64,000 nt of DNA from an uncultured Clostridia bacterium (GTDB lineage: Bacteria > Bacillota > Clostridia > TANB77 > CAG-508), in assembly GCA_934178475.1 (NCBI GenBank), contig CAKPQH010000003.1, positions 50,315 through 114,314 on the forward strand, in the 5' to 3' direction. The translations under genes and the position numbers were made by a program. The notes beneath the pieces are model-generated. The model did not search any database and was not told the DNA's origin. It saw nothing but the letters and a program-made list of their open reading frames with translations. Of this stretch, positions 487 through 46,907 are shown one piece after another. How positions within the stretch are numbered: the first letter of the stretch is position 1; the number at the start of each line of letters is the position of its first letter.

Positions 487-1589
487 AAAAGTTTTAATTG
501 TTGCAACTGTTATTGAACATATAATTGGTTTTCATATTCCTTATATAAAATTTTTAAAATTAAAAGGTTACGAAGTACATATTGCTTGCAATGGAAATAA
601 ACTAGTAAAAGATGTTGAAGTACAATATAATTTACCATTTACAAGAAACCCTTTTACAATTAACAATATTAAATCATATATAAAATTAAAGAAGATTATA
701 AATAAAGAAAATTTTGATATTATACATTGCAATACTCCTGTTCGGGGGTGTTCTTACAAGAATTGCAGCAAGAAAAAGTAAACATTCAAAGGTAATTTAT
801 ACTGCACATGGATTTCATTTTTATAAAGGAGCACCAAAAAGAAATTGGATTTTATATTATCCAATTGAAAAAATTTTAGCTAGAAATACAGATGTTTTAA
901 TAACGATAAATAATGAAGATTATAATATTGCTAAAAGAAAATTTAAGACGAAAAAGATATATAAATTTGATGGTGTGGGAGTAGATGAAAGTAAATTTAA
1001 TACTAAGGAAAAAATAAATAGAGAAGAGTATTTAAAAGAAATTTCTTTAAAGAAAAAAGATTATGTGTTTTTAAGTATAGGAGAATTGAACGAAAATAAA
1101 AATCAAATAATGCAACTTAATGCTATGAAGATTGTTGTAAAAAAGTGTCCTAATGCTAGATTATTAATAGCTGGAGATGGATGTTTAAAAAGTTTTTACT
1201 ATAATTATATATATGAAAATGATTTAGAAAATTGTGTTAGACTGCTTGGATATAGAAAAGATATTTCGAAAATCTTAAAATGTGTTGATTGTGTGATATC
1301 AACGAGTAAAAGAGAAGGATTACCTGTTAATTTAATTGAAGCAATGTTCTGTAATAAACCAATTATTGCAAGTAATATTAGAGGAAATATTGACTTAATA
1401 GATGATGAATCAGTTTTTTCTCTTGATGATGTAGATGAACTTGCTAAGAAGATGACTAATAATATTGAAGAAAACAAAATTATGCAAAATTATGATATTG
1501 AAAAATATAAAATAGAAAATATATTAAGAAAATATGAATTTATATATAATGAGTTTGAAAAAGAATATGAAAAAGGTTGTGAAGATTAA
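455..1589 (+). pseudogene. GT4-family glycosyltransferase split into two overlapping ORFs (455-781 and 714-1589) by a +1 frameshift at a G5 run (744-748)
   Basis: The first ORF ends ...FDIIHCNTPV then reads out of frame (RGCSYKNCSKKK*). The second ORF continues in the other frame with GGVLTRIAARKSKHSKVIYTAHGFHFYKGAP. Together they give a contiguous GT4 N-terminal domain. The C-terminal GT4 domain is present (EGLPVNLIEAMFCNKPIIAS). The shift lies in the run ttcgggggtg. Confidence 0.6.
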
Positions 1590-2773
1590 TGAAAAAAATT
1601 AATATTATACATCTTTTAGTATATATATATTTACTCTTAAAACCATTTTATATATTTCCTTCTGGTAGAATACAAATATCTGATTTGTTTATAATTATGG
1701 CATATTTCATTTTGGTTCTTATAACTTTAAAAAAAGAAAATATAAAAAAATACATAAATTATAAAATATATTTACTTAGTGTATTTGTTTTTTCTATTGT
1801 TGGAATAAGCGTTATATATAGTGTAATGTATTTTAGGTATGATTTCTTATTATCAGCATCTTTTTATATATTTGATTTTATGGGTGTTTATGTTTTGTAT
1901 TATTGCATAAAGGAAAAGAGTTTTGTGAGAAATATACGAAATATTTGTAGAATAAATATATTGTTTCAAGTTATTTTTTATTTAGTAGGATTAGGAACTT
2001 GGTATGGTACGGTTAGATATATGGGAACATTTAATGATCCTAATCAATTTGCTTTTTTTATATTTTCTAGTTTAACTGTAGTATATGTAATTGAGGATAA
2101 TTTAAAATTAAAAAAATCTATAATTTCATATATGATATCAATTTTTTTGGTTGTAGAATCTGGTTCTACAGGAATGCTTTTGGGAACTATGGTATTTGTT
2201 TTAGGAGTTGTTACATATAGAATTATAAAAATAGATATGAAAAAGTATATAAAACCTATGCTTGCAACTGTAAGTTTGATATTTGTTGGTATAGCTATAA
2301 TAATACTTACATTTAATAATATTAGTGAATATATATATAATTTCACAAAAGATAACATTATTATTAATCGAGTAAGAGAAAAATTATCAAGAGCAAATAA
2401 TACATCAGGTAATTTATTACAAGAGAGAGGTTATGATAAAATTATTAAATATCCATATAAGATGATTTTGGGAGCTGGTCATGGATATAATGAGAGGTAC
2501 AAAACATATCATACAGGAGAAATACATGCAACATTTCCAAGTATATTGTTTTATTATGGAATAGTTCCATTTATAATTTTAATTTTATGGATATGGAAAA
2601 ATATAAAATACGTACCGAAAAATATTATGATTGTTTATTTTTCATTACTTGTTGAAAGTATGACACTTTTAAATCAGAGGCAAATTTTATTTTGGGTATT
2701 AATAATGTTGGGAAGTTTATATAAGACAGGAGAAAAGGAAAATGAGATTTTCTGTAGTGATACCAGTGTTTAA
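1589..2773 (+). CDS. Polytopic membrane protein, Wzy-like O-antigen/capsule polymerase or ligase family
   Basis: It has about 10 predicted TM helices, a large loop, and sits between glycosyltransferases and a Wzx flippase. Its start is translationally coupled to the upstream gene (ATGA overlap). Confidence 0.45.
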   Translation: MKKINIIHLLVYIYLLLKPFYIFPSGRIQISDLFIIMAYFILVLITLKKENIKKYINYKIYLLSVFVFSIVGISVIYSVMYFRYDFLLSASFYIFDFMGVYVLYYCIKEKSFVRNIRNICRINILFQVIFYLVGLGTWYGTVRYMGTFNDPNQFAFFIFSSLTVVYVIEDNLKLKKSIISYMISIFLVVESGSTGMLLGTMVFVLGVVTYRIIKIDMKKYIKPMLATVSLIFVGIAIIILTFNNISEYIYNFTKDNIIINRVREKLSRANNTSGNLLQERGYDKIIKYPYKMILGAGHGYNERYKTYHTGEIHATFPSILFYYGIVPFIILILWIWKNIKYVPKNIMIVYFSLLVESMTLLNQRQILFWVLIMLGSLYKTGEKENEIFCSDTSV

Positions 2774-3761
2774 TTCTGAAAAATATATAGATAGATGTCT
2801 TAATAGTATAATAAATCAAACATATAAAAATATAGAGATAATTATAATAGATGATGGGTCAAGTGATAGATCATATGGAATTTGTGAAAAAAAATCTAAG
2901 AAAGATAAAAGAATAAAGTTAATAAAACAAGCAAATAAAGGTGTATCTTTTGCTAGAAATTTAGGTATTGAAGAATCTAAAGGAGATTTTATTGTTTTTG
3001 TAGATAGTGATGATTATTTAGAAGATACAGCTATAGAAGTTTGTAATAATAATATAAAAGATAATGATTTGTTAATATGTGAAATAGCATATATTGTTAA
3101 TGAGAAAAAAATATATATTCCATGTAAATTAAATGGAGAATATACAACAAAGACATTGTTAGAATCTCTAAATAATAGAAAAAACATAAAATTAGCTGAA
3201 AGAATTAATTCAGTATGTGGTAAAGTTTATAGGGCAGATATTATAAAGTTAAATCAAATTAGATTTGATGAATGTATTTCTATTGGAGAAGATTTACTTT
3301 TTAATATTTATTATTTGGAAAAAATAAAAAAAATTAAATGGATTGATTATGCAATTTATAATTATTACAAGAATAATATATATTCTTGTACAAATGATTA
3401 TAAAAAGAATAAGTTTATGGAATTAAATGAAGTTAGTAATAGTTATGAGAGATTGTTAGATACATTAGGTGATAAGAAATTATTTGATATTGTAAAATAT
3501 ATAAGAGTTAAAAATATATATTCTTGTATATTAGACTTGTTTCATGAAAAATGTGATTTAAAATTTAAAGAAAAGTTGAAGTATATAAAAAATATTAAAA
3601 ATATAACTAAGAGAAAAGTGGTAATAGGTAAAGGATTTGGATTTTTTTGTGGATCTATAATATATAGTTTTTTACCGGAATTTTTGTTACTTCTTATATG
3701 TAAAATTATATTTTTTTATAGAAGTTTTAGGTTGAATATTAGAAAAGGAGACATAGGTTGA
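2742..3761 (+). CDS. GT2-family glycosyltransferase
   Basis: N-terminal motifs match GT-A/GT2 proteins: VVIPVFNSEKYIDRCLNSIINQTY, IIIIDDGSSD and VDSDD (DXD). Confidence 0.75.
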   Translation: MRFSVVIPVFNSEKYIDRCLNSIINQTYKNIEIIIIDDGSSDRSYGICEKKSKKDKRIKLIKQANKGVSFARNLGIEESKGDFIVFVDSDDYLEDTAIEVCNNNIKDNDLLICEIAYIVNEKKIYIPCKLNGEYTTKTLLESLNNRKNIKLAERINSVCGKVYRADIIKLNQIRFDECISIGEDLLFNIYYLEKIKKIKWIDYAIYNYYKNNIYSCTNDYKKNKFMELNEVSNSYERLLDTLGDKKLFDIVKYIRVKNIYSCILDLFHEKCDLKFKEKLKYIKNIKNITKRKVVIGKGFGFFCGSIIYSFLPEFLLLLICKIIFFYRSFRLNIRKGDIG

Positions 3762-5305
3762 AAAAGATAAAAGAAATAGATCAAATTAAGATGGGTGCTG
3801 TTTTATCATATGTGATAATTTTTCTAAATATTATTGTGAGTTTGTTTTATACACCAATACTTATAAGGTGTCTTGGACAATCAGAATATGGACTGTATTC
3901 ACTTGTTTCATCAATTATTTCATATTTAACTATTTTAGATTTAGGTTTTGGAAATGCTATAATTTTATATACAACTAAATATAGGGTTAATAAACAAGAA
4001 GAAGCTGAAAATAAGTTACATGGAATGTTTTTCTTGATTTATATTTTTATTGGTATTGTTGCAGCATTATTAAGTATGATTTTATATTTTAATATAAATA
4101 AATTATTTTCTAACACAATAACTTATGATGAATTATCTAAATCGAAAGTATTAATAATTATACTTACAGTTAATTTAGCATTATCTTTTCCTTTATCTAT
4201 ATTTAGCTCTATAATTACAGCTTATGAAAAGTTCGTATTTTCTAAATTGGTAAATATAATAAGAATAATTTTAACACCAATAATAATGATACCATTACTT
4301 TTAAATGGATATAAATCTATAGCATTAACAATTGTTGTAACAATTTTAAATATATCGTCTTTGCTTATTAATTTGATTTATTGCATATGTAAATTAAATA
4401 TAAAATTTAATTTTGGTGGATTCAATTTTAAGTTATTAAGAGAGATTTCAGCTTTTTCAATATGGATTTTTTTAAATATTATAATAGATAAAATAAATTG
4501 GAACATAGACCAATATATATTAGGTGCTATAAATGGGACTATAGCTGTTTCTGTATATTCTATCGGTTCACAAATAAATATGTTATATTTAACTTTTTCA
4601 ACAGCAATAAGTAGTGTTTTATTTCCAAAAACTATTAAAATGGAGGAAGAAAATGTATCTGCAAGTGAATTTACAAAAATTTTTATTTATGTAGGAAGGA
4701 TACAATTTATCATTTTAGGAATTATTTTAACTGGATTTATATTATTTGGAAAAGTGTTTATGAAAATATGGGCAGGAGAAGAATATATAAATTCTTATTA
4801 TGTTGCTTGTATATTGATGATTCCAATGACAATTCCTCTTATCCAATCATTAGGGTTAAATATTTTACAAGCAAAAAATAAAAATAAATTTAGAACTTTA
4901 GTATTTCTTGGGATTTCTATTTTGAATATTTTGATAAGTGTTCCACTTGCAAAAAAATATTCTGAAATAGGATGTAGTATTGGGACTTCAATTGCTGTTG
5001 TTTTAGGTCAGGTTATAGTTCTTAATTTTTATTATCATAAAGCGATACATATTAATATTATTTTATTTTGGAAGAGAATTTTGAAAACTTTTATTTCTAT
5101 ATTGTTATCTTTCTTAGTTGGAATAGTTTATGTCTGTATATTTAATATAAATAATATTTATATTTTAATTCTAGGGATATTTTTATATGCAGTTGTGTAT
5201 GTATGTTTTATATGGATATTTGAGATAGATAAAAATGAAAAAGAGAAACTTAAGCAAATTTTCAATAAGCTACATAATGAAGAAAAGATTGATGAAAGTT
5301 ATTGA
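3758..5305 (+). CDS. Wzx-type polysaccharide flippase (MOP/PST family)
   Basis: 515 aa with about 12-14 TM helices and PST-family organisation. It overlaps the GT2 gene by 4 nt. Confidence 0.7.
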   Translation: MKKIKEIDQIKMGAVLSYVIIFLNIIVSLFYTPILIRCLGQSEYGLYSLVSSIISYLTILDLGFGNAIILYTTKYRVNKQEEAENKLHGMFFLIYIFIGIVAALLSMILYFNINKLFSNTITYDELSKSKVLIIILTVNLALSFPLSIFSSIITAYEKFVFSKLVNIIRIILTPIIMIPLLLNGYKSIALTIVVTILNISSLLINLIYCICKLNIKFNFGGFNFKLLREISAFSIWIFLNIIIDKINWNIDQYILGAINGTIAVSVYSIGSQINMLYLTFSTAISSVLFPKTIKMEEENVSASEFTKIFIYVGRIQFIILGIILTGFILFGKVFMKIWAGEEYINSYYVACILMIPMTIPLIQSLGLNILQAKNKNKFRTLVFLGISILNILISVPLAKKYSEIGCSIGTSIAVVLGQVIVLNFYYHKAIHINIILFWKRILKTFISILLSFLVGIVYVCIFNINNIYILILGIFLYAVVYVCFIWIFEIDKNEKEKLKQIFNKLHNEEKIDESY

Positions 5306-6609
5306 AAGGAGAGCTTATGGAAGGATTAGATTTAAGAGAATTATTAGATGTTTTTATAACTAAAAAAAGACAAATTGCTGCTATATTGTTAATATTTATA
5401 TTGTGCGGCATTGTATATTCTTTTTTGATTTTAAAACCAAGATATAAATCAAAAGTATCTTTAGTATTAGGAAGGATACAGACAAGTGATGGTAGTTTAA
5501 TTACTGAAAAAGAGATAAGTATAAACCAAAGTTTGATTTCTACATATATTGAATTATTAAATAGTGATGCTATTTTAGATGAAGTGAAGAAAAATTTGAA
5601 TTTAGATCAAAAAACAGAAAAATTGAGAAAAAGTATAGAAATAAAAACAGAAGAAAATACAGAATTTATATCTATAGAAGTTTCAAATTATAGTCCTGTT
5701 TATGCTGGAATTATAGCAAATGAAATGGCTAAAGTTTTTATTGCAAAGGTTGAAAATATATATAATATTGATAATATATGTATTGTGGAGAATGCAAAGA
5801 TTTCTAATGAACCATATAACATTAAGCATTTAAGAGATATTAGTGTTTCTTTTCTGGTTGGTGTGGTTGTTATAGTAATGTATACTATTATTTTTGATTT
5901 ATTAGATAGTTCAGTAAGAAATTCGATTGATGTGGAAGAAAAATTAAAGTTAAAGCTTTTACAAATTATTCCAAGAAAGAATAAAAAAGATAAACAAAAT
6001 GATGAAATAAGGGATAGTTTGCATAATTTGAGAAATAAGATTAATTATTTTGAATCTTATTCTAATCAAAATAAAACAATTTTAATTACAGCTACTGAGA
6101 ATTTAAAATCTAAGACTTGGCTAACTTTAAATTTGGCTATAGTTTTCTCAGAAATTGGTGAAAGAGTTTTGATTATTGATGGTGATTTAAAAAGATCTAA
6201 TATGAGTAAAATTATGAAAAATGAAGAAAAAGGTTTAAAAGATATTTTAGAAACGAATTATTTCGAGAATATAGATGTGAATAAGTATATTTATCCTACA
6301 GAATACAGTAATGTATATTTGATGCCATGTGGAATAAGTTATGATGGTGAAATAGGATTAATTAATAATCTAAGGGAAGAATTTATTGAAAGACTAAAAG
6401 AAAACTATGATTTTGTTATATTCGATGGAGGGATATTAGGGAAAACAATGGATACAGCTATAATTTCAAGAGTGGTTGATGGCACAATTATATTAACTAA
6501 TTATGGAAAAACTAAAATAAAAAATTTAGGAAGTGTGAAAAATGATATTTTAAGTATGGGAGGAAATATTATGGGGGTTGTATTAGATGATGTTCCAAAT
6601 ATAAAGTAG
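5302..6609 (+). CDS. Wzz/CpsC-like chain-length determinant fused to a CpsD/BY-kinase-like domain with a degenerate Walker A motif
   Basis: An N-terminal TM helix and Wzz-like periplasmic segment are followed by a second TM helix. The C-terminal domain resembles BY-kinases (VLIIDGDLKR, DFVIFDGGIL). The P-loop position reads TATENLKSKTW instead of GxxGxGKS/T. There is no C-terminal Tyr cluster. Confidence 0.5.
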   Translation: MKGELMEGLDLRELLDVFITKKRQIAAILLIFILCGIVYSFLILKPRYKSKVSLVLGRIQTSDGSLITEKEISINQSLISTYIELLNSDAILDEVKKNLNLDQKTEKLRKSIEIKTEENTEFISIEVSNYSPVYAGIIANEMAKVFIAKVENIYNIDNICIVENAKISNEPYNIKHLRDISVSFLVGVVVIVMYTIIFDLLDSSVRNSIDVEEKLKLKLLQIIPRKNKKDKQNDEIRDSLHNLRNKINYFESYSNQNKTILITATENLKSKTWLTLNLAIVFSEIGERVLIIDGDLKRSNMSKIMKNEEKGLKDILETNYFENIDVNKYIYPTEYSNVYLMPCGISYDGEIGLINNLREEFIERLKENYDFVIFDGGILGKTMDTAIISRVVDGTIILTNYGKTKIKNLGSVKNDILSMGGNIMGVVLDDVPNIK

Positions 6610-6657: not shown

Positions 6658-7104
6658 ATGACGTGTTGTAAACCTGAAAAGGAGTATAAAGGTGGATGCT
6701 TAATAGAAGTAATAATAAGCATTATAATTGGAGTTATATTTGGAATTTTATTTTCTAATGGTTTAATTCCAGTTGCACTAAATTTTATAAAAATTGCATT
6801 AGTAATGTCTGCTATTGGAATGGTAATACTTGGAGCAACTTTGTTTGCTGCAAATTTTATTAGAGGACGTAACGAATTTAGAAAATGTTTTTGCAGAATT
6901 AATATATGTTTATTGATATCAACTATAGGAACATTTTTAGCTGGAACTGCGGCTGCAACTATAGGATTAACTATAACTTCAACAATATCAGTTTTAGCTG
7001 TTGCTTTAACAATGTTTTTCTTTATATGGTTAGTTTTATTAGTAATATCATTATTTTTATGTTTAATTAGAGAAACTTGTACAAATAAACATGAGGAGTG
7101 TTAG
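6658..7104 (+). CDS. Small Cys-rich polytopic membrane protein, function unknown
   Basis: 148 aa with 4 predicted TM helices and Cys clusters at both termini (MTCCKPE..., ...CLIRETCTNKHEEC). It has an RBS-like aaggtggtgag upstream. Confidence 0.3.
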   Translation: MTCCKPEKEYKGGCLIEVIISIIIGVIFGILFSNGLIPVALNFIKIALVMSAIGMVILGATLFAANFIRGRNEFRKCFCRINICLLISTIGTFLAGTAAATIGLTITSTISVLAVALTMFFFIWLVLLVISLFLCLIRETCTNKHEEC

Positions 7105-7308: not shown

Positions 7309-8178
7309 TTGAGGAGGAAATTAAATATAGATAAGAATCACAAAAATTTAGAAATAACGAATGATTATGTATTCAAAAGGTTATTTGGATACAAAGGAAA
7401 TGAAGAAATAACAAAAGGATTAATAAATGAAATATTAGAGGAAAAAGTAGAAGAATTAGATTTAAAAGAAAGTCCAATATTAGAAAAAGATTTACATGAT
7501 GATAAAGTAGGAATATTAGATATAAGAGCAAGATTGGATAATAAGAGAATATGTAATATAGAGATGCAAGTAATAAAATATAATAATATAGAAGAAAGAA
7601 TACTGTATTATTGGAGTAAATTATATGCAGGAGAAATAAAAGAAGGAGAAGATTATAAAAAGTTAAATAAAACAATAATAATATTGATAGCAGATTTTAT
7701 ATTAGATAGAACAAAAGGTATACCAAAGGTTCATACTGAATGGAAAATAAGAGAAACAGAATATTCAAAAATAGTATTGACAAATATATTTGAAGTTCAT
7801 ATAATAGAATTACCTAAAGTAAAAAAGATAAATAAAAAAGGAGAAGAAAAAGACAAACTAACAGTGTGGTTACGATTCATAAAATCTCCAGAAAGTATAG
7901 GTAAAGAAGAAATGGAAAATAAAGAGATAAAAAAAGCGAAAGTAGAATATGATAAAATAAATCAAGATGAGAGAGAAAGAGAACTTGCAGAACTAAGATT
8001 AAAATATATTAGAGATCAAAATGCTATAAGAGATTATGGGTATGATAGAGGGAAAGAAGAAGGAATAAAAAATGAAAAAATAAATATTGCAAAAGCTATG
8101 TTAAAAGATAATATACCTTTAAAGCAAATAATAAAGTTTACAGGATTATCAAAAGAAGAAATTGAAAGTTTAAAATAA
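7309..8178 (+). mobile_element. Rpn/YhgA-like (Transposase_31, PD-(D/E)XK) recombination-promoting nuclease or putative transposase gene
   Basis: The N-terminus (DYVFKRLFG...NEILE...LDIRARL) and overall Lys/Glu-rich 289 aa architecture fit Rpn-family proteins, which are common in Clostridia. The gene is flanked by short GC hairpins at 7121-7145 and 8203-8232. The assignment is by recall. Confidence 0.55.
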
Positions 8179-8310
8179 GTTAATTAAATGTATTTATGAT
8201 TTTAAAAGCTAGCTTTTTAAGCTGGCTTTTAAATGTTTTAGTAGAAAGTTGATTTATGTATTAGTGATATGTTATAGTTGATTTTGAAGGGGAAAATATA
8301 AATAAAAAAG

Positions 8311-9237
8311 GTGATTTGTTTGAAAAATAATGAATTAAAAGGATTGATTGAAAAACTAAAAATGTGTGATAACAAAGAAGAAAAAGAAAATATTTTTGAA
8401 GAAATGTATTTAAATATAAAGAAAACTGTTTATAAAATAGCATATGGAATATTAAAAAATAATGAAGATTCAGAAGATGTTATGCAAAAGGTATTTATTA
8501 AAATTTATTCATTAGACAAAGAAAGATTGCCAAAAGATAATGAGTTTAGCTGGCTTTATACAGTAACTAAGAATGAGTCAATTGCATTTGCTAAGAAAAA
8601 GAATGAATATATTGATATAGATAAGATTTATGAAATAGAAGATAAAAATGATGGAATAAATGAGTTGATTGAAATAGAGCGTTTTAATAAAATAATATAT
8701 AAACTAAATGAGTTAGATAAGCAGATAGTATCTCTAAAGATTTTATCAGAATTTTCTTTTGAAGAGATTTCAAGATTGCTTAATAAACCTACATCTACTA
8801 TTAAATGGAGATATTATAAAGCTTTATATAATATTGAACTTATATTGAGTAATTTAAGTTTATTTATAATTACATTTGTTTTTGGAAGCAAGATGGCATT
8901 TAAGAAATATATTAAAGAAAAAACAACTGAAAATAAAAATGAGAATAAAGATGAAAATATTTCTAAAAATGAAATAGAAAATAATGACATAGATAGTTTA
9001 AATCAGGAAAAAAATGTTAAAGAAGAAACTAAAAAATTTGAAGAACTTTCAGATACTGATAGTGCTATAAATAATGAAAACAATCTAGATATAAAAGAAG
9101 AAATGCCTATTGAAAGTAATGTACAAAATGTAAATTATAACTTAGAAATAAGTTTTGTTGGGATTTCTATGATTTTTTTTATTATAGCAATAGTTTTTAT
9201 AAAAAAAGGTGGGGTAAAAAATAAAAAAATAAAATAA
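8311..9237 (+). CDS. ECF-type sigma-70 family sigma factor with a C-terminal extension containing two TM helices and a low-complexity Asn/Glu/Lys-rich extracytoplasmic segment
   Basis: Region 2 (VMQKVFIKIYS...FSWLYTVTKNESIAFAKKK) and region 4 (LDKQIVSLKILSEFSFEEISRLLNKPTSTIKWRYYKAL) are recognisable. Hydrophobic helices follow at LSLFIITFVFG and ISFVGISMIFFIIAIVFI. Confidence 0.6.
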   Translation: MICLKNNELKGLIEKLKMCDNKEEKENIFEEMYLNIKKTVYKIAYGILKNNEDSEDVMQKVFIKIYSLDKERLPKDNEFSWLYTVTKNESIAFAKKKNEYIDIDKIYEIEDKNDGINELIEIERFNKIIYKLNELDKQIVSLKILSEFSFEEISRLLNKPTSTIKWRYYKALYNIELILSNLSLFIITFVFGSKMAFKKYIKEKTTENKNENKDENISKNEIENNDIDSLNQEKNVKEETKKFEELSDTDSAINNENNLDIKEEMPIESNVQNVNYNLEISFVGISMIFFIIAIVFIKKGGVKNKKIK

Positions 9238-9305
9238 TTAAAAAAATACCAACTAAAATAGATAAAAAAATCATCTAAATATATAGAAGGGAAAAAGGTG
9301 ATAAT

Positions 9306-10280
9306 ATGAATAAAGTTTTGAAAGTTATAGTAATAATCATGGTTTTGGTATTTGTTGCAATTGGAGTGATGTTAGTCTATAGTAAGAATGATTTAAAAAG
9401 AACATTTGATAAAAACGATAATGTGGATGTTGTTCAAAATAATGAAATTCAAGAAAGCAGTGATGATGAGAATATAACAAAAATAGAGGAGTTGCCTGAA
9501 AAATATAGTTTTATACAAGCTATTAAAGATAAGTGTGTGGTTTCTGGGTATAAAAAGATGTATAACAAAGATGTTTTAGATAAATTTGTAGAGAATGTAA
9601 ATAACGGAAAAAAGGGATTTATGAGACTTATTAGTTATACAATAGAGGGTGATATGATTATAACAGATATTGATTTTGATGGAAAAATCTTTAAGGTCTG
9701 TTTCGACTGGACAAGAGATGAATATTCAAGTAAAGAAGATAGAATTTATAAATATTGTAAATATGAGAAATTTGAAGAAGAAAGAACAGAAACAGGAACT
9801 TACTATTATGTGGATTCACCATTAGATGGAGATCTAGGAAAAAGGGATATTGTTGGATGTGAGAATAATATAGAATTTATAAATGATTATAAATTTAATT
9901 ATATATTAAGTGTAAAATATGACCAGAATCAAGAAAAAAATTTAGAGAAAATAACTACAGATGAATTTAATAATAAATATAATTATGATGTGTTTTATTA
10001 TGGTATAGATAGTGCTGAAATTACAGTGGATAATGAAAAAATGAATTTAAATGAAGCTTTAAATCAGGAAAAGGTTTCGATGGGAAAAGTTATTGAGCAA
10101 GCAGAAAAAGATAGTGAATCTGGTATTATAGTGAGTGATACGTATAAAGAAGGTGGAAGTATGATTTACTTTTATGATACATATACAATTATAAAAAAAC
10201 ATTCTTTAGATGGAAACAGAGATGTATATATTGGTGATCCAGAGATGAGATTAGAATCAATAGGAAAGGAGAAGAATTAG
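9306..10280 (+). CDS. N-terminally membrane-anchored extracytoplasmic protein, possibly DUF4362-like
   Basis: There is a signal-anchor (VIVIIMVLVFVAIGVMLV). The motif FVENVNNGKKGFMRLISYTIEGDMIITDIDFDGKIFKV resembles what I recall of DUF4362. This is a memory-only assignment. Confidence 0.3.
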   Translation: MNKVLKVIVIIMVLVFVAIGVMLVYSKNDLKRTFDKNDNVDVVQNNEIQESSDDENITKIEELPEKYSFIQAIKDKCVVSGYKKMYNKDVLDKFVENVNNGKKGFMRLISYTIEGDMIITDIDFDGKIFKVCFDWTRDEYSSKEDRIYKYCKYEKFEEERTETGTYYYVDSPLDGDLGKRDIVGCENNIEFINDYKFNYILSVKYDQNQEKNLEKITTDEFNNKYNYDVFYYGIDSAEITVDNEKMNLNEALNQEKVSMGKVIEQAEKDSESGIIVSDTYKEGGSMIYFYDTYTIIKKHSLDGNRDVYIGDPEMRLESIGKEKN

Positions 10281-10283
10281 TAA

Positions 10284-11372
10284 ATGAAGAAAAAAATAAT
10301 ATTATGTGTGAGCTTAATTGTCTTAATAGTTATATTAGTATTTAGTGTAGTATTAATAAACAAAAATAAAAAAGATGTAGATAGTAGCAATAGTGCTAAT
10401 ATGAAAAATACAGAAGGAATAGAGACGGTCTTAACATTAGAAGATGAGATAAAAGATGATACAATATGGTGTGGTACATTTCAGCTTATATGGAATGACT
10501 TAAAAAATGATTTAGCAAAACAAGATATAGCGTTTATGCCTAAACAACTAAAAGTAGTTGAAAATTTAAACAAAGAAACGTTTAAAAAGGAATATTTAAC
10601 GGATAAATATTATTATAAAAAGATAGGTATACCATCTTTAGAATTGAAAAAAGAAATTGAAAATGCCATAAAAGATAAATTTAATGAAAAAAGTAATATT
10701 TTGGATAACTTTGAGTGGAATGGAAAAAGTGAAAATGATTATTTTTTGTATGTTATGTTAAAAAAAGAGTTTGAATTTGAAAAAGCTTTTGAAGACTTAG
10801 ATAAAGGAGCTTTTGGAAATTTTAATAATATTAGTTATTTTGGAATAAAAGATGAAGATAGCAATGAAGTTTTAAAGCAGGTTGAGGTGCTATATTATGA
10901 TTCTAAAGATGACTTCGCTATTAAATTAAAAACAAAACAAGAAGATGAAGTTATTTTATGCAAAAATCCTAAAGGGGAAACTTTTAATGAAATATATGAT
11001 AAAATAAATGAAAGAAGAGATGATTATAAAGGTGATGTATTTATACAAGAGGGAGAAAAGCTAAAAGTACCAAATATAAAAATAAATCAAAAAAAGGAAT
11101 TTAAGGAAATTGAAAATAATAGTTTTTATTTTTCAACAGGTAAAACTTGCCATATAGATAAAGCGATTCAAACAATAGAATTTGATTTGGATAGAAAAGG
11201 TGGAAGAATTAAAAGCGAAGCAGGAATGATGGCGCTACTACAGGATAGTATTTCAATGCGTACAGAAAGAACGTTTTATTTAGATGATACATTTGCTATT
11301 TTCTTAAAAGAAGAAGGAAAAGACAAACCTTATTTTGCAGGGAAAATAACAGATATAACTAAATTTCAATAA
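10284..11372 (+). CDS. N-terminally membrane-anchored or secreted protein of unknown function
   Basis: It has a signal-anchor and no recognisable catalytic motif. It is co-oriented with and tightly spaced after the sigma and DUF4362-like genes. Confidence 0.3.
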   Translation: MKKKIILCVSLIVLIVILVFSVVLINKNKKDVDSSNSANMKNTEGIETVLTLEDEIKDDTIWCGTFQLIWNDLKNDLAKQDIAFMPKQLKVVENLNKETFKKEYLTDKYYYKKIGIPSLELKKEIENAIKDKFNEKSNILDNFEWNGKSENDYFLYVMLKKEFEFEKAFEDLDKGAFGNFNNISYFGIKDEDSNEVLKQVEVLYYDSKDDFAIKLKTKQEDEVILCKNPKGETFNEIYDKINERRDDYKGDVFIQEGEKLKVPNIKINQKKEFKEIENNSFYFSTGKTCHIDKAIQTIEFDLDRKGGRIKSEAGMMALLQDSISMRTERTFYLDDTFAIFLKEEGKDKPYFAGKITDITKFQ

Positions 11373-11393
11373 AAAGGAGAAATATAAAGGAAA

Positions 11394-12068
11394 ATGAAGA
11401 AGGTACAAATATTGGATATAATAGCATATTTATTTGTGGGGTTAAATTTGGTTATAGATTTTATGCCTAATATTAGTTTAAGTGTAAAGGCAAAACTATT
11501 TGTATATATTTTAAGTATTCTACTTATATTTGTTAATATGAAAATACAAAATAAAAAACTTGAAAATGATGAGAAAGAAAAAAATATAAGAAAAGGATTA
11601 TTAAAGATTTTTATTGTATATTCTATATTAATAATGACATTATTATTTTTAGATGGAAATTTTAGAATGTATACTTGGAGAAAAAATGTTAATATATTTT
11701 CTAAAGAATATTTTCAAAATTTTTGTAATATAGTTCCGTTTTCTACAATTATTAATTTTTTTGATAAAAGTGCAAAAGGATATTTAAATACTAGAATTTT
11801 AATAACAAATATTTTAGGCAATATATTGATATTTGCACCATATGGTTTCTTTTTGCCTACGATATTTGAGGATAAGTTTAAAAGTTCGAAAAATTTTATT
11901 TTGGGAATGATTGTAATTGTTTTTGTTGTTGAGGTTGTTCAATTTTTAACAGGATTAGGTTCTTTTGATATTGATGATATAATTTTAAATACTTTAGGCG
12001 CAGTTATGGTATTTTTAATCTTTAAAGTAGAAAAGATTAATATATTTATTAAAGATATTTGTAAATAG
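11394..12068 (+). CDS. VanZ-like family membrane protein
   Basis: 4-5 TM helices with the VanZ-like motifs NIVPFSTI and NILGNILIFAPYGFFLP. Confidence 0.6.
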   Translation: MKKVQILDIIAYLFVGLNLVIDFMPNISLSVKAKLFVYILSILLIFVNMKIQNKKLENDEKEKNIRKGLLKIFIVYSILIMTLLFLDGNFRMYTWRKNVNIFSKEYFQNFCNIVPFSTIINFFDKSAKGYLNTRILITNILGNILIFAPYGFFLPTIFEDKFKSSKNFILGMIVIVFVVEVVQFLTGLGSFDIDDIILNTLGAVMVFLIFKVEKINIFIKDICK

Positions 12069-21758: not shown

Positions 21759-22517
21759 ATGTACTTTCATGGAGTTAATATTGGCTACTATCTTGTAGCT
21801 GCTATAGTTGGACTTTTTATGGGTGAGTTTGTATCTTGGATGAATAAAAGACTTCCTGAATATAAAAAAGTTTTTTCAAAAGATTTAATAAAAGAATATA
21901 AAGAAAATTTTACTCCAAATTATATATTAATGATAATAACAGCTGCCATATATGTTCTTTTAATTTATAAATTTGGAATAAAAAATACTTTTATAGAAAA
22001 TTTAGAATTAATAAAATTTTTGATTTTAACACCAATGTTATTATCAGTTGTAATAATAGATTATAAATTACAGATAATACCTAATAGATTAAATTTAACT
22101 ATGTTTGAGGTAGGTATTGTTATTGCATTTATATATGGTTTATCAAATATTGCTATAGGAATTAATATGTTACTTGGAATGTTTGCTGGTGGTGGAATAT
22201 TCTTAATGATAACATTATTAGGTGGTTTGGTTTATGGAAAAGAAGCTATGGGACTTGGTGATGTTAAACTTATGGGAGCTTTAGGACTTTATTTTGGTTT
22301 GGCAAATATTGTTGTAATAGCTTTGGTATCTTTTTTAATAGGTGCTGTTTTGAGTATTATTTTACTTGCTACTAAAATAAAAAAGATGGATGAATATATA
22401 CCTTTTGGACCATTTATAGTTTTAGCAACATTTATATCAATATTTATACCATATGATATATTAGTAACAGCTTTATACAATATTTTTACATTAGGACTTT
22501 ATAGTAAAAACCATTAA
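21759..22517 (+). CDS. Type IV prepilin peptidase (A24 family)
   Basis: Polytopic membrane protein with the conserved catalytic-Asp contexts IDYKL and GLGDVKLMGALGLYFG. Confidence 0.65.
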   Translation: MYFHGVNIGYYLVAAIVGLFMGEFVSWMNKRLPEYKKVFSKDLIKEYKENFTPNYILMIITAAIYVLLIYKFGIKNTFIENLELIKFLILTPMLLSVVIIDYKLQIIPNRLNLTMFEVGIVIAFIYGLSNIAIGINMLLGMFAGGGIFLMITLLGGLVYGKEAMGLGDVKLMGALGLYFGLANIVVIALVSFLIGAVLSIILLATKIKKMDEYIPFGPFIVLATFISIFIPYDILVTALYNIFTLGLYSKNH

Positions 22518-43048: not shown

Positions 43049-44327
43049 ATGAAAAAAGTATTAAAAAATGTAAAAGGTATAACATTAATTGCTTTAGTAA
43101 TTACTATAATCGTGTTATTAATATTAGCAGGTATATCAATAAGTATGATATCAAGTCAAGATGGAATATTAACGAAGGCAAAAGATGCAAAGTCTCTAAT
43201 GAAAATAAAAACAGAAGAAGAATTGGTACAATTAGCAGTACATAATGCTTATATAGAAGAAGAAGGAGATTTTGAAAAAGAAACAGCAGAAGAAGAAATA
43301 AAAAAGAGTTTGGTCGAAAACGGTTTAAGTATTACAGGAGATAATTTTAAAAAAGTAAATGAAAAATGGTATTATGTAAGCAGTTTAGGAAAAAACTATG
43401 AAATTAATAAAGATGCAAATGTAAGTATAGTAGAAGAATTACCTAAAATTGATGGTTTTATTGATGGAATATTATATTATAACGGAGAACCTTTTTCTGG
43501 TGACTGGTGGTATAGTCCGGAAGACAAAATTCAAAATCCGCCAAGTATATTCCTTATAAATGGAAAATATGCAAAATATCAAGAAGGTAAGATAGATGAG
43601 GGGTGGAGCATTGATAATTCATATTATATGTTTGGAGAACTTTACACTGGTATTGTAAGACCTACTGGAGGTTGGTACTATGGAAGATTAGTTAATGGCG
43701 AAATGGAAGTTCCAGCTCGGACCTAACGGAGGAGCTTATGATGCTAATTCTTTGATTGTAAATAATGGTAAGAGATTTGATGGAATTGCATATATGGCTG
43801 GTTATAGAAGTTCTATGTATTCTGAAGTAATAGATGGATTATTGCAAAAAACATTATATTCTTGTTTGCTTCCAACAACAGAAATAGAAGTTATAGAAGA
43901 AGATGAAAAAGGAAGAAAGAAACGTAGAAAGAAAAAAATAAAGGACATAAAAGAGGGAGACAAGGTATTATCAGTAAATCCAGAAACGGGAAAACTTGAA
44001 GAAGATGTAGTAATATATGCAGACGGAGATGAAAATAAAAAATATAATAAATTTGAAATATGGACATTTAATGATGGAACAGAAGTAAAAACACTTCATA
44101 AACATAGATTTTATAATATAGAAAGACAAGATTTTGTGTATATACAAGAATGGAATATAGGAGAACATGGATATAAAGAGAATGGAGAAATTATAGAATT
44201 AATAAGACATAAAGTGGTAAATGAGGAAGTTCAACATTGCACGATATTTACAGAAAAATGGAATAATTATTTTGCTAATGGAGTATTGACAGGAAATAGA
44301 AATTCTATAAAAATGAAAATTTTATAA
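43049..44327 (+). pseudogene. Cassette copy 1: pilin-like-leader protein with WYY cell-wall-binding-like repeats and a C-terminal Hint-like domain. It is interrupted by a +1 frameshift near 43695-43726
   Basis: Two overlapping ORFs lie in different frames (43049-43726 and 43695-44327). The N-terminal 35 aa are near-identical to 45117-46907. The second ORF carries a Hint block A (CLLPTTEIEV). The intein F/G-like end is degenerate (NGVLTGN instead of VHN). Confidence 0.5.
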
Positions 44328-45116: not shown

Positions 45117-46907
45117 ATGATGAAAATGAAGACGGGATTAAAAAATGTAAAAGGTATAACATTAATTGCATTAGTAATTACAATAATTGTGTTATTAATA
45201 TTAGCAGGTGTATCAATAAGTATGATATCAAGTCAGGATGGAATATTAAAACAAGCAGCAAAGGCAAAACTTATGCAAGAGATAGCTCAAGTAGAGGAGC
45301 TACTCAACTTAAAAGTATTAGAAATATATTCAGCAAATTCGGACAATTTAGACAATGTAACAAATGGAACAATAAAAACAGCAGTAATGACAGAGATAGG
45401 TAAAATGGGATATGAGACAGAAGAGAAAACTACAACACAAGCAACAGTAAAAGGACTATTAATTCAAGATTCAACAGGAGCAAATATTGAAAATGTAAAT
45501 TTAATACAAAATGGAGAGCAGATTATAACAATCAAATTAGATACAGAAGGAAATACAAATTCAAAAACATATGTAATAATACAAAGTAAGAAATTTGAAA
45601 TTACGATAAATGACGGAACAGTAAAAATATCTAGAGAAGAGTACATAGATCAATCAGAAGACCAAGAAGCATATCAAATAAAATTAACACCACCAACAAC
45701 GGGTACTAAAATATATGTTGAGAATAATGAAATAACAGAGGAGACTAATATAGCAGATAATACAAATATAAAAGTCAAGGCAGGAGACAGCACAGGAACA
45801 TTTAATTTTAACGTACAAGAGTCCAAAAGTGGAACTTCAAGAGAGGTAAGTGTTAATGTAGAAGCTAATCAAGCATATGCTACGAAACTAACTATAGGAG
45901 TAAAAGATAATGCAGAAGCGACAATTACACCAGAAGGGACATTACAATTACAGGCAACGATAGAGCCACTAAGTTCGACAGACACAGTAACTTGGAAAGT
46001 TGAATCAGGAGATGGAACAATAAGTGATACAGGATTGTTAACAGCAAATAGTACTGCTACAGCAGGAAGTAAGATAAAAGTTATAGCAAAATGTGTAAGA
46101 GCAGATAATACAACATCAAATGTTCAAGGAACAATAGAAATAATGGTACAAGAAGAACTAATAGATATGAGTTCTTTTTATATTCAGCAGTCTAGTGAAA
46201 CTGCCCCATTATCTTATACAATTTCAGGTGACAGCCATGGATATGATATATATTATGCTCGAATGGGTATTCCGGTTGGTAGTTTAGATGAACTTATTGA
46301 ACATGAGAAAATTTATATGCCAGGAACTCAATTTACTGGGGGAAATAGTCATGAATGGTTATATGTATGGCTTTCGAAAGATGGTACAAATGTAAAATCT
46401 CAAATAAAAGTATTTGCAACTACGGTGTGGATGTGCTTTACAGAAGATACGTTGATAGAAACATTAAATGGTAGCCAAAAGATAAAAGATATTAAAATAG
46501 GTGAATTGGTATATAGCTACAATGAAAAAAGTAATAAAGTTGAGTTGAAAAAAGTTACAAATACATATATTCATAGAATAGAAGCTAATCTTTGTAGAAT
46601 AAAGGTGGGAAATGACGTTATAGATAGTACAACAAATCATCCATATTTTGTTAAAGATAAGGGATGGGTACTAGCTAGTAAATTAGAGAAAGGCGATAAT
46701 CTTATGGATGTAGGAGGTCAATCACTAATTGTTCAAGAAAATTCAATTATTAATAATGCTATAGTAGATGTATATAACTTTGAAGTTGAAGGGAATCATA
46801 ATTATTTTGTTGGCAAATCTTGTGTATTAGTGCATAATGCACCAGATGTTATTAACTGTTCATATGTAGGAACGAAAGAATTTGGAGATATTGTAACATT
46901 TGATTAA
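45117..46907 (+). CDS. Cassette copy 2: pilin-like N-terminal leader/anchor, central Ig-like (Big_2-type) domain region, and a C-terminal Hint/intein-like (BIL-like) autoprocessing domain
   Basis: The N-terminus is MKTGLKNVKGITLIALVITIIVLLILAGVSI. A Big_2-like segment reads TITPEGTLQLQATIEPLSSTDTVTWKVESGDGTISDTGLLTANSTATAGSKIKVIAKC. Intein blocks are A CFTEDTLIETLNG, B TTNHPYF, and F/G VYNFEVEGNHNYFVGKSCVLVHNA. A 22-aa tail follows. Confidence 0.65.
   Translation: MMKMKTGLKNVKGITLIALVITIIVLLILAGVSISMISSQDGILKQAAKAKLMQEIAQVEELLNLKVLEIYSANSDNLDNVTNGTIKTAVMTEIGKMGYETEEKTTTQATVKGLLIQDSTGANIENVNLIQNGEQIITIKLDTEGNTNSKTYVIIQSKKFEITINDGTVKISREEYIDQSEDQEAYQIKLTPPTTGTKIYVENNEITEETNIADNTNIKVKAGDSTGTFNFNVQESKSGTSREVSVNVEANQAYATKLTIGVKDNAEATITPEGTLQLQATIEPLSSTDTVTWKVESGDGTISDTGLLTANSTATAGSKIKVIAKCVRADNTTSNVQGTIEIMVQEELIDMSSFYIQQSSETAPLSYTISGDSHGYDIYYARMGIPVGSLDELIEHEKIYMPGTQFTGGNSHEWLYVWLSKDGTNVKSQIKVFATTVWMCFTEDTLIETLNGSQKIKDIKIGELVYSYNEKSNKVELKKVTNTYIHRIEANLCRIKVGNDVIDSTTNHPYFVKDKGWVLASKLEKGDNLMDVGGQSLIVQENSIINNAIVDVYNFEVEGNHNYFVGKSCVLVHNAPDVINCSYVGTKEFGDIVTFD

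Follow-up and report, generated by a model that had tools for sequence, protein, structure and literature searches.

In a 64,000-nucleotide stretch of contig CAKPQH010000003.1 from an uncultured Clostridia bacterium (the whole 64-kb stretch is called the window here), we found a gene for an extracytoplasmic function (ECF) sigma factor that carries its own predicted membrane anchor, a two-helix hairpin at its C-terminus, and that is followed by an ECF-type promoter and by genes for surface-anchored proteins. The conserved core of this module is the sigma gene together with a signal-anchored protein of one of two types, p2 or p3, both of which are present in the window. The hairpin recurs in relatives, no gene for a separate anti-sigma factor lies beside the sigma gene, and the promoter is usually written into the last codons of the sigma gene itself. 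An earlier reading of the locus, made from its sequence only, had listed four co-directional open reading frames (ORFs), and our ORF check found all four in the same positions.

The sigma factor and its predicted membrane hairpin

The sigma gene product is an ECF (group 4) sigma factor, containing sigma-2 and sigma-4 domains only. Pfam placed Sigma70_r2 at aa 37–97 (E 8e-9) and Sigma70_r4_2 at aa 127–172, the latter just at threshold (E 8.4e-6, 25.8 bits against a cut-off of 25.7), and the NCBIfam model TIGR02937 (sigma70-ECF) scored 59.8 bits against a cut-off of 42.9. These matches bear out the sigma-70 regions 2 and 4 that the sequence-only reading had assigned to the first ORF. Regions 1.1 and 3 had no match in the protein in the Pfam and NCBIfam scans. 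The sigma-4 recognition helix, TIKWRYYK, is invariant in the family alignment. The same reading had started a 308-aa product at GTG 8311; the likely start is instead TTG 8320, which gives 305 aa. This codon is preceded by the ribosome-binding site AAAGGTGA and is used both by 98%-identical relatives (P0001) and by the gene call on L090, the contig of a close relative (L numbers denote the compared loci).

A Kyte-Doolittle scan of the protein found two hydrophobic segments, at aa 175–193 and aa 274–292 (308-aa numbering), which were read by eye as L177–F197 and L278–I297. Helix 1 starts about 6 residues past the KWRYYK motif, without a linker; its most hydrophobic 19-residue span starts 4 residues past the motif in the protein encoded here and 4–8 residues past it overall. 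Because only about 6 residues part the motif from helix 1, there is no room for an anti-sigma domain between them, and no Pfam or NCBIfam model of such a domain matched anywhere in the sigma protein. The loop between the helices has a net charge of −8 and the tail one of +6; hydropathy and this positive-inside pattern fit, here and across the family, a predicted topology in which the loop is outside the cell and both the sigma domains and the tail are inside. The outside loop is probably disordered. The order of a transmembrane helix, a low-complexity segment and a second transmembrane helix was thus correctly proposed in the earlier reading as far as hydropathy tells, with a loop of 80 aa and not roughly 90.

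This architecture is a property of the family. Both hydrophobic segments lie at the same positions in 120/120 best homologs (286–342 aa, mostly 41–49% identical). We also searched with the sigma domain alone (aa 1–175) against 1.84 billion cluster representatives, 99 of which matched at E<=1e-30, and among the best representatives, clustered at 50% identity, 119/150 had both segments; the others are mostly short and probably truncated. These counts uphold the earlier claim of a physically membrane-anchored sigma factor and also answer its question whether homologs always carry the extension: all of the closest homologs do, as do 119/150 of the representatives. No close relative that lacks the extension and is paired with a separate anti-sigma factor was found among the relatives examined. 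Helix 1 has the family consensus LLSNLGMFIITFVIG, with conserved Asn, Thr and Gly positions inside the helix, and helix 2 is likewise conserved across the family and followed by a tail of 13 residues (median) charged at +6. Between relatives the loop defies alignment. Its length runs from 70 to 122 aa (median 80) and its net charge from −3 to −24 (median −11), and it consists of 19% Glu, 14% Asn, 10% Ile and 9% Lys, with Thr and Gln also abundant.

In a species-representative genome set, 194 stretches encode relatives of the sigma factor. All 80 listed of these 194 come from uncultured gut Clostridia in human, mouse, rabbit and chicken samples, with Clostridium sp. CAG:273, CAG:793 and Candidatus Scatovivens as example hosts. 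Gene order and promoter are conserved over ~80 loci, and in a 98%-identical relative the arrangement is intact and identical.

A conserved promoter at the end of the sigma gene

Comparison of the DNA around the sigma genes of ~90 loci gave a family motif, CCAACTAAAA-N13-(C/T)(G/A)TCTAAAT, which can also be written CCAAC-N18-(C/T)(G/A)TCTAAAT and is followed by a conserved leader (ATAGAAAGG...AAAGGTGGT), a ribosome-binding site and the start of the next gene. The ~1 Mb of locus DNA contains 71 distinct instances, all within the module and all with a fixed 30-nt geometry. In 62 of the 71 the motif lies inside the last codons of the sigma ORF, ending exactly 4 nt before the ORF end, and there it encodes the family tail K-Y-Q-L-K-x-K-K-K-x-S-K. 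Non-coding instances stand 5' of the sigma gene in L037, L053, L060 and L061, 5' of a p2-like gene in L021, and at 9249–9280 in the window, where the motif is the single match in 64 kb even when 1 mismatch is allowed. The two boxes of the motif resemble the AAC and CGTC boxes that recur in many ECF groups (Casas-Pastor supplement). ECF factors usually have such a promoter 5' of their own gene, for autoregulation. Here, as in most relatives, the motif sits downstream of the sigma gene and before the next gene. The element is a candidate target promoter of the sigma factor and the sole recognizable one. Since the gene after the sigma gene is preceded by this conserved promoter of ECF type, we take the downstream genes as partners of the sigma factor.

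Several features of the embedded copies point to selection on the DNA. First, codon −12 is NAC in 66/66 genes, whether it encodes Tyr, His, Asn or Cys, compared with TAC in 11% of Tyr codons elsewhere in the genes. Second, codon −10 is CTA in 60/66, compared with 15% of Leu codons elsewhere in the same genes. Third, codon −3 is TCT in 66/66, compared with 21% of Ser codons elsewhere in the same genes. Codon usage is thus constrained though the amino acid at −12 varies, and it shows selection on the DNA and not on the peptide. Lastly, the window itself provides a natural experiment. The nonsense codons TAA 9235 and TAG 9259 remove the family's usual tail from its sigma protein, and the DNA past 9235 still reads in frame as L-K-K-Y-Q-L-K … S-S-K, the family tail. 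With the tail lost and the promoter motif intact, it is the DNA element that matters, not the peptide.

The sigma gene is preceded by elements of a different kind. A terminator-like hairpin marks the left boundary of the module, and a hairpin with a T-tract is found just 5' of the sigma gene in many relatives too. Past it, the extended −10 sequence TnTGnTATAA recurs at the same place in relatives, with the hairpin preceding it in most loci. A window motif scan found no ECF-type motif upstream of the window's sigma gene. Because a housekeeping-type extended −10 precedes the sigma gene in most loci, the sigma factor appears to be made constitutively in most members, and its own promoter would boost the downstream genes only.

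Partner genes and genomic setting

The coordinates of the module are collected in Table 1. The gene that follows the sigma gene starts 13–26 nt past its stop codon in most loci, and in most loci examined the hydrophobic anchor of its product starts at residue 5–12. Since the anchor begins so early, this protein is without a cytoplasmic anti-sigma domain. A cognate anti-sigma gene beside the sigma gene is typical of ECF factors, though not obligatory. Consistently, no gene with an N-terminal cytoplasmic anti-sigma domain adjoins the sigma gene in the window or in 89 related loci, as the sequence-only reading had supposed for the window, and zf-HC2, RskA and DUF4179 have no match in p2 or p3.

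Table 1. Features of the tethered sigma factor module, in window coordinates
Feature	Position	Strand	Description
Terminator-like hairpin	8201..8233	+	15-pair stem then T-run; ends the upstream Rpn/PDDEXK_2 gene
Candidate sigma-A type promoter of the sigma gene	8249..8278	+	TTGATT-18-TATAGT with TG extension; consensus match only
ECF sigma factor gene with C-terminal membrane hairpin	8320..9237	+	305 aa from TTG 8320
Cytoplasmic sigma-2 and sigma-4 domains	~8419-8601, ~8689-8826 (8419..8826)	+	Pfam
Transmembrane helix 1 (LILSNLSLFIITFVFGSKMAF)	8839..8901	+	Hydropathy; predicted N-terminus in, C-terminus out
Predicted extracytoplasmic acidic loop	8902..9141	+	80 aa, Glu/Asn/Lys-rich, repetitive, compositionally biased
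Transmembrane helix 2 (LEISFVGISMIFFIIAIVFI) and basic tail KKGGVKNKKIK (11 aa)	9142..9234	+	Hydropathy, alignment
ECF-type promoter	9249..9280	+	−35 CCAAC (9249-9253), spacer, −10 CATCTAAAT (9272-9280); just past the sigma stop codon
p2, signal-anchored extracytoplasmic protein	9306..10280	+	DUF4362 (aa 78-166), middle beta domain, conserved C-terminal domain p2C (~100 aa)
p3, signal-anchored protein, divergent serpin fold by model	10284..11372	+	Invariant hinge-like segment aa 306-316, hypervariable loop aa 317-328
VanZ-family membrane protein, last gene of the likely operon	11394..12068	+	Pfam VanZ E 8e-22, 78.7 bits against 30.1

The product of p2 matches DUF4362 above the gathering threshold (PF14275, E 7e-10, 39.3 bits against a cut-off of 25), in agreement with the earlier assignment of the second gene, and the model matches 28/33 members of the p2 family. 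A p2-like protein stands beside the sigma gene in 62/89 loci, nearly always as the next gene, and its similarity to p2 lies mostly over p2C. The AlphaFold2 model of p2 has a pLDDT of 86, and a structure search with it found no significant neighbor among solved structures. A resemblance of p2C to PepSY was also considered. It produced only faint matches (4/33 members, best E 0.019; 2/20, best E 0.0045) and nothing with Protein Data Bank (PDB) profiles, and so stays an unproven hint. In L026 (6938–8509) and L031 (6910–8481) a p2-type and a p3-type protein are fused into one 523-aa signal-anchored protein, and this fusion suggests that p2 and p3 may act together.

The third gene had been described as encoding a second anchored protein, possibly with DUF4179. 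The signal anchor is present; DUF4179 is not, and the model of p3 has a divergent serpin fold in its place. The quality of the AlphaFold model is moderate: its mean pLDDT is 63, and in the core (aa 110–320) most 10-residue blocks score 68–93. All of its top 50 Foldseek PDB matches are serpins (probability 1.00, E 1e-8 to 5e-7, TM 0.36–0.51). In a PDB profile search, the p3 family profile matched the Drosophila serpin 4p0f over the hinge and C-terminal strands (E 0.025). PF00079 (Serpin) matches 20/31 p3 family members, best at E 1e-6; the p3 of the window itself falls below threshold (18.4 bits where 27 is required, in a match limited to the C-terminal 74 aa). By column entropies, the hinge-equivalent segment GGKIKSEAGMM is invariant, and after it come 12 hypervariable residues that recall true reactive loops; the C-terminal DDTFAIFL...KxPYFAGKI resembles the serpin signature. 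The hinge carries Ile, Lys and Glu at P12, P11 and P9. In inhibitory serpins the hinge consensus has Thr/Ser at P14 and Ala/Gly/Ser at P12–P9, with a variable reactive-centre loop. By this comparison the p3 hinge is atypical, and protease inhibition by p3 is no more than possible. We found 1,864 homologs of p3, and p3-like proteins occur in 25/89 loci; a search begun from p3 homologs returns to a ~300-aa sigma gene directly upstream. An identity of p3 as a DUF4179 or anti-sigma protein was rejected, with no match beyond a single homolog at E 0.081.

The fourth gene encodes a VanZ-family protein, as previously read. It starts 21 nt past p3, and no terminator was found between the two. Scores against the NCBIfam resistance subtypes vanZ-A, vanZ-F and vanZ-Pt were 34 against 375, 32 against 260 and 20 against 250 bits, and by these values the product would not be a recognized resistance determinant. 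VanZ lies near the sigma gene in only 6/89 loci and is an accessory, lineage-specific, occasional passenger of the module.

Some subfamilies have further neighbors. In a subfamily with sigma factors of ~340 aa (L007, L008, L009, L030, L036, L056 and others), the sigma gene lies directly 3' of genes for a response regulator, an ABC ATPase, an ABC-2 permease and a histidine kinase, the last of which ends ~57 nt before the sigma gene in 17 loci; these neighbors hint at a second control layer or at a link to peptide antibiotics. In the P0069 subfamily (L001–L003, 5900–6997), the two genes 5' of the sigma gene encode an Rce1-like CPBP intramembrane protease and a 131-aa multi-helix membrane protein, which occupies position −1 in 6 loci. 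The CPBP protease and the 131-aa protein are possible processing partners, though not family-wide ones.

The modules of relatives often lie in or beside apparent integrative mobile elements, and because genes for integrases, excisionases or resolvases often adjoin them, mobility is suggested. Examples are an integrase and HTH_17 in L004, L091 and L092, DnaB_C and AAA in L093/L094, and resolvases, a recombinase, a sortase and a SpaA pilin in L001–L003. Some genomes carry two modules on separate contigs, SVGD01 (L018, L027) and CANSWM01 (L066, L078). Because all modules share the same promoter motif, cross-talk between such paralogs is possible. An anti-phage role was rejected, as PADLOC gave no match for the module, and so was a phage origin: PHROGs returned a generic phage sigma family only, and 2.9 million viral contigs contained 1 relative.

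The window is very AT-rich, with a G+C content of 22–30%. To the left of the module are a polysaccharide-synthesis locus (714–6609, +), encoding a GT2 glycosyltransferase, a Polysacc_synt flippase and a Wzz domain fused to a P-loop kinase-like domain; a 148-aa Cys-rich multi-helix membrane protein without a family match (6658–7104, +); and, directly 5' of the module, a gene of the Rpn / PD-(D/E)XK "transposase" family (7309–8178, +; PF12784, E 8e-50; TIGR01784). Contig L090 ends ~310 nt 5' of its sigma gene, which may indicate a repeat. To the right are housekeeping genes (xpt-like, Ham1, Maf, Crp-family, NrdD). Farther away, a prepilin peptidase (Peptidase_A24) is encoded at 21759–22517 (+), and a 596-aa protein at 45117–46907 (+) joins a type-IV-pilin-like N-terminal leader (…KGITLIALVITIIVLLILAG) to a C-terminal pretoxin-HINT domain (PF07591, E 7e-22), that is, a pilin-like protein to a polymorphic-toxin module. 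The neighboring 225-aa ORF at 43049–43726 (+) has the same pilin-like leader and no family match. No paralogs of the sigma gene, p2 or p3 were found elsewhere in the 64 kb, and a search of the region for structured RNA gave one sub-threshold chance match only.

Possible activation and related systems

Regulated proteolysis is, judged from the anatomy of the protein alone, the most plausible release mechanism. The model we propose follows the eukaryotic transcription factor SREBP, and we hold it with somewhat less than even confidence. The sigma factor would be made constitutively from the housekeeping-type promoter and inserted into the membrane with its sigma domains inside the cell. While tethered it would be inactive, with sigma-4 pressed on the membrane and unable to engage RNA polymerase and the −35 element. 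A protease would then cut the exposed loop, separating helices 1 and 2 and leaving helix 1 as a short stub with its N-terminus in and its C-terminus out, the standard substrate of a site-2 protease of the RasP/RseP type. Intramembrane cleavage would free the sigma factor to turn on the single adjacent promoter and so the adjacent operon. Intramembrane cleavage would be compatible with the Asn and Gly conserved in helix 1, though these prove nothing.

SREBP has a cytosolic N-terminal transcription domain, two helices, a short outside loop and its C-terminus inside. It is released when S1P cuts the loop and S2P, a site-2 metalloprotease, then cleaves helix 1. The sigma factor is like it in predicted topology. 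SREBP differs in being eukaryotic, unrelated in sequence and controlled by trafficking, and in having a large C-terminal regulatory domain where the sigma factor has a tail of ~13 residues. Within bacteria, the sporulation factors of Bacillus offer another comparison. Pro-sigma-K and pro-sigma-E are inactive membrane-associated precursors activated by membrane-embedded proteases, SpoIVFB and SpoIIGA, respectively, of which SpoIVFB is a site-2-type protease. They are, however, group-3 and not ECF factors, and have a short N-terminal pro-sequence and no C-terminal two-helix hairpin.

The signal that would start this sequence is the most speculative part of the proposal. Serpins of gut commensals (the Bifidobacterium serpin, siropins and miropin) are thought to protect against host proteases (PMC8201313), and expression of the Bifidobacterium breve serpin is induced by protease through a two-component system (PMC8012564). 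Given a loop without a folded domain, the gut habitat, the serpin-fold output and the B. breve precedent, an extracellular protease is the most attractive candidate. The cutter could then be gut or host protease activity outside the cell, and the induced, surface-anchored serpin-like protein could inhibit that same protease as feedback. The module would be a protease-sensing bacterial counterpart of SREBP, in which the loop serves as bait, one cut licenses release, and the serpin-like and p2-type output closes the loop; we consider this full version rather unlikely. If true, it would be a compact, horizontally mobile sense-and-inhibit circuit in which each sensor molecule is used once. Compared with the gut bacterial serpins, p3 has diverged much further, bears a membrane anchor at its N-terminus and an atypical hinge, and in the proposed model would be under a tethered sigma factor rather than under a two-component system as in B. 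breve.

A number of points weigh against activation by proteolysis. First, every step after membrane insertion, including cleavage, release and activity, is one that we infer, and the topology from which they follow comes from hydropathy and charge distribution only. Second, clustering of neighboring genes revealed no protease gene consistently linked to the module, and the Rce1-like CPBP protease lies two genes 5' of the sigma gene in few loci only. Third, the spacing of 18 nt from AAC to CGT is at the long end for ECF promoters. Fourth, the p3 hinge (G-G-K-I-K-S-E-A) does not keep to the small-residue consensus that inhibitory serpins show, and because it is atypical, protease inhibition by p3 is not assured. 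Lastly, most loci carry p2-type partners of unassigned fold and not a serpin-like protein.

The module might instead sense envelope stress or antimicrobials such as glycopeptides, lysozyme, cationic peptides or bile. The hairpin or its acidic loop would respond to perturbation of the membrane or cell wall, or bind cationic compounds, and the operon would protect the envelope. VanZ is the last gene here and is also found in L005, L006 and L050, and genes for PadR and FtsW/RodA are inserted in L005 and L006. Known cationic-peptide sensors are strongly acidic, as is the loop, and the two-component system and ABC transporter that adjoin the ~340-aa subfamily are typical of peptide-antibiotic modules. 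We nevertheless regard this explanation as unlikely. The loop lacks a folded domain that could bind a ligand, and the proteins conserved alongside the sigma factor are of the serpin-fold and p2 types, without known resistance functions. VanZ is absent from all but 6/89 loci, and the copy here scores far below the resistance-subtype cut-offs. The glycopeptide/lysozyme label that the sequence-only reading gave to the locus is therefore not retained: it rests on an accessory gene, and the serpin fold points to proteases and away from antibiotics acting on the cell wall.

The sigma factor might also work while anchored, with RNA polymerase recruited to the membrane and the locus held there because the hairpin and the anchored products are inserted while still being transcribed and translated. 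That the only recognizable target promoter lies in or next to the DNA for the last helix and tail would suit such an arrangement, as would the membrane location of all operon products and the lack of a dedicated protease linked to the module. ToxR, CadC and VtrA are alike in that a DNA-binding module is joined to the membrane, sensing is outside and the genes they control often lie next to their own. These proteins are winged-helix activators that act anchored through long linkers, as in ToxR and CadC, whereas the present protein is a linkerless sigma subunit. Without a flexible linker, binding of the polymerase flap and of −35 DNA against the membrane looks sterically difficult, and the conserved acidic loop would be left without a role, so we judge activity in the anchored state to be quite improbable.

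That the helices are not real, or that the gene is a decayed or accidental fusion of a sigma factor with a small membrane protein, is highly improbable: the window copy has lost the family tail through nonsense codons and its loop has the biased composition common in AT-rich genomes, but the architecture recurs in 120/120 homologs and 119/150 representatives, residues of the helices are conserved, gene order and promoter are kept in ~80 loci, and the 98%-identical relative is intact with the same arrangement.

ECF sigma factors that bear regulatory extensions at the C-terminus are familiar, and extensions with membrane helices are already catalogued in ECF263, ECF48/52/53, IutY and ECF262 (Casas-Pastor et al. 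2021; IutY PMC8999054). IutY of Pseudomonas putida (ECF243) is a sigma/anti-sigma fusion released by Prc and then RseP (PMC8999054). IutY and ECF48/52/53 (e.g. SCO4117) likewise combine an N-terminal ECF sigma factor and a membrane-spanning C-terminal extension in one polypeptide, but they have a FecR-like or zinc-finger anti-sigma domain before the membrane and a folded sensor outside. The sigma factor described here has no anti-sigma domain, and its disordered loop would return to the inside via a second helix. ECF262, with the representative SFB89493.1 from Ruminococcus albus and no studied member, is closer: it is found in Clostridiales, has no anti-sigma factor and carries C-terminal extensions, in some members with transmembrane helices, through which its authors proposed regulation (Casas-Pastor et al. 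2021). It differs in having 0–1 transmembrane helix, "various" domain matches, no conserved promoter and sometimes tandem ECF genes, whereas in the present family the hairpin is uniform, with two helices, the promoter is strongly conserved and the partner genes are conserved as well. ECF262 may be the home of the family, as compared by group description only; the accession of one relative, CDE84633.1, was not found in the supplement tables of Casas-Pastor. In the searchable literature we found no relevant work on DUF4362 or on sigma factors tethered to the membrane in this way, none on a uniform two-helix hairpin without an anti-sigma domain, and none on a promoter embedded in coding sequence or on an association with serpin-fold and DUF4362 proteins.

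One major route of bacterial transmembrane signaling runs through ECF sigma factors, and nearly all characterized ones use a separate or fused anti-sigma domain. Replacement of the anti-sigma factor by the membrane across a large family would be a design principle distinct from these. As a sensor-output cassette the module is very small and portable, with the candidate target promoter written into the coding sequence of the sigma factor itself. Through it, gut Clostridia of an unstudied group are connected with a protein family that is new, highly conserved and surface-anchored, with a predicted serpin fold, and the connection is relevant to how commensals cope with the protease-rich gut.

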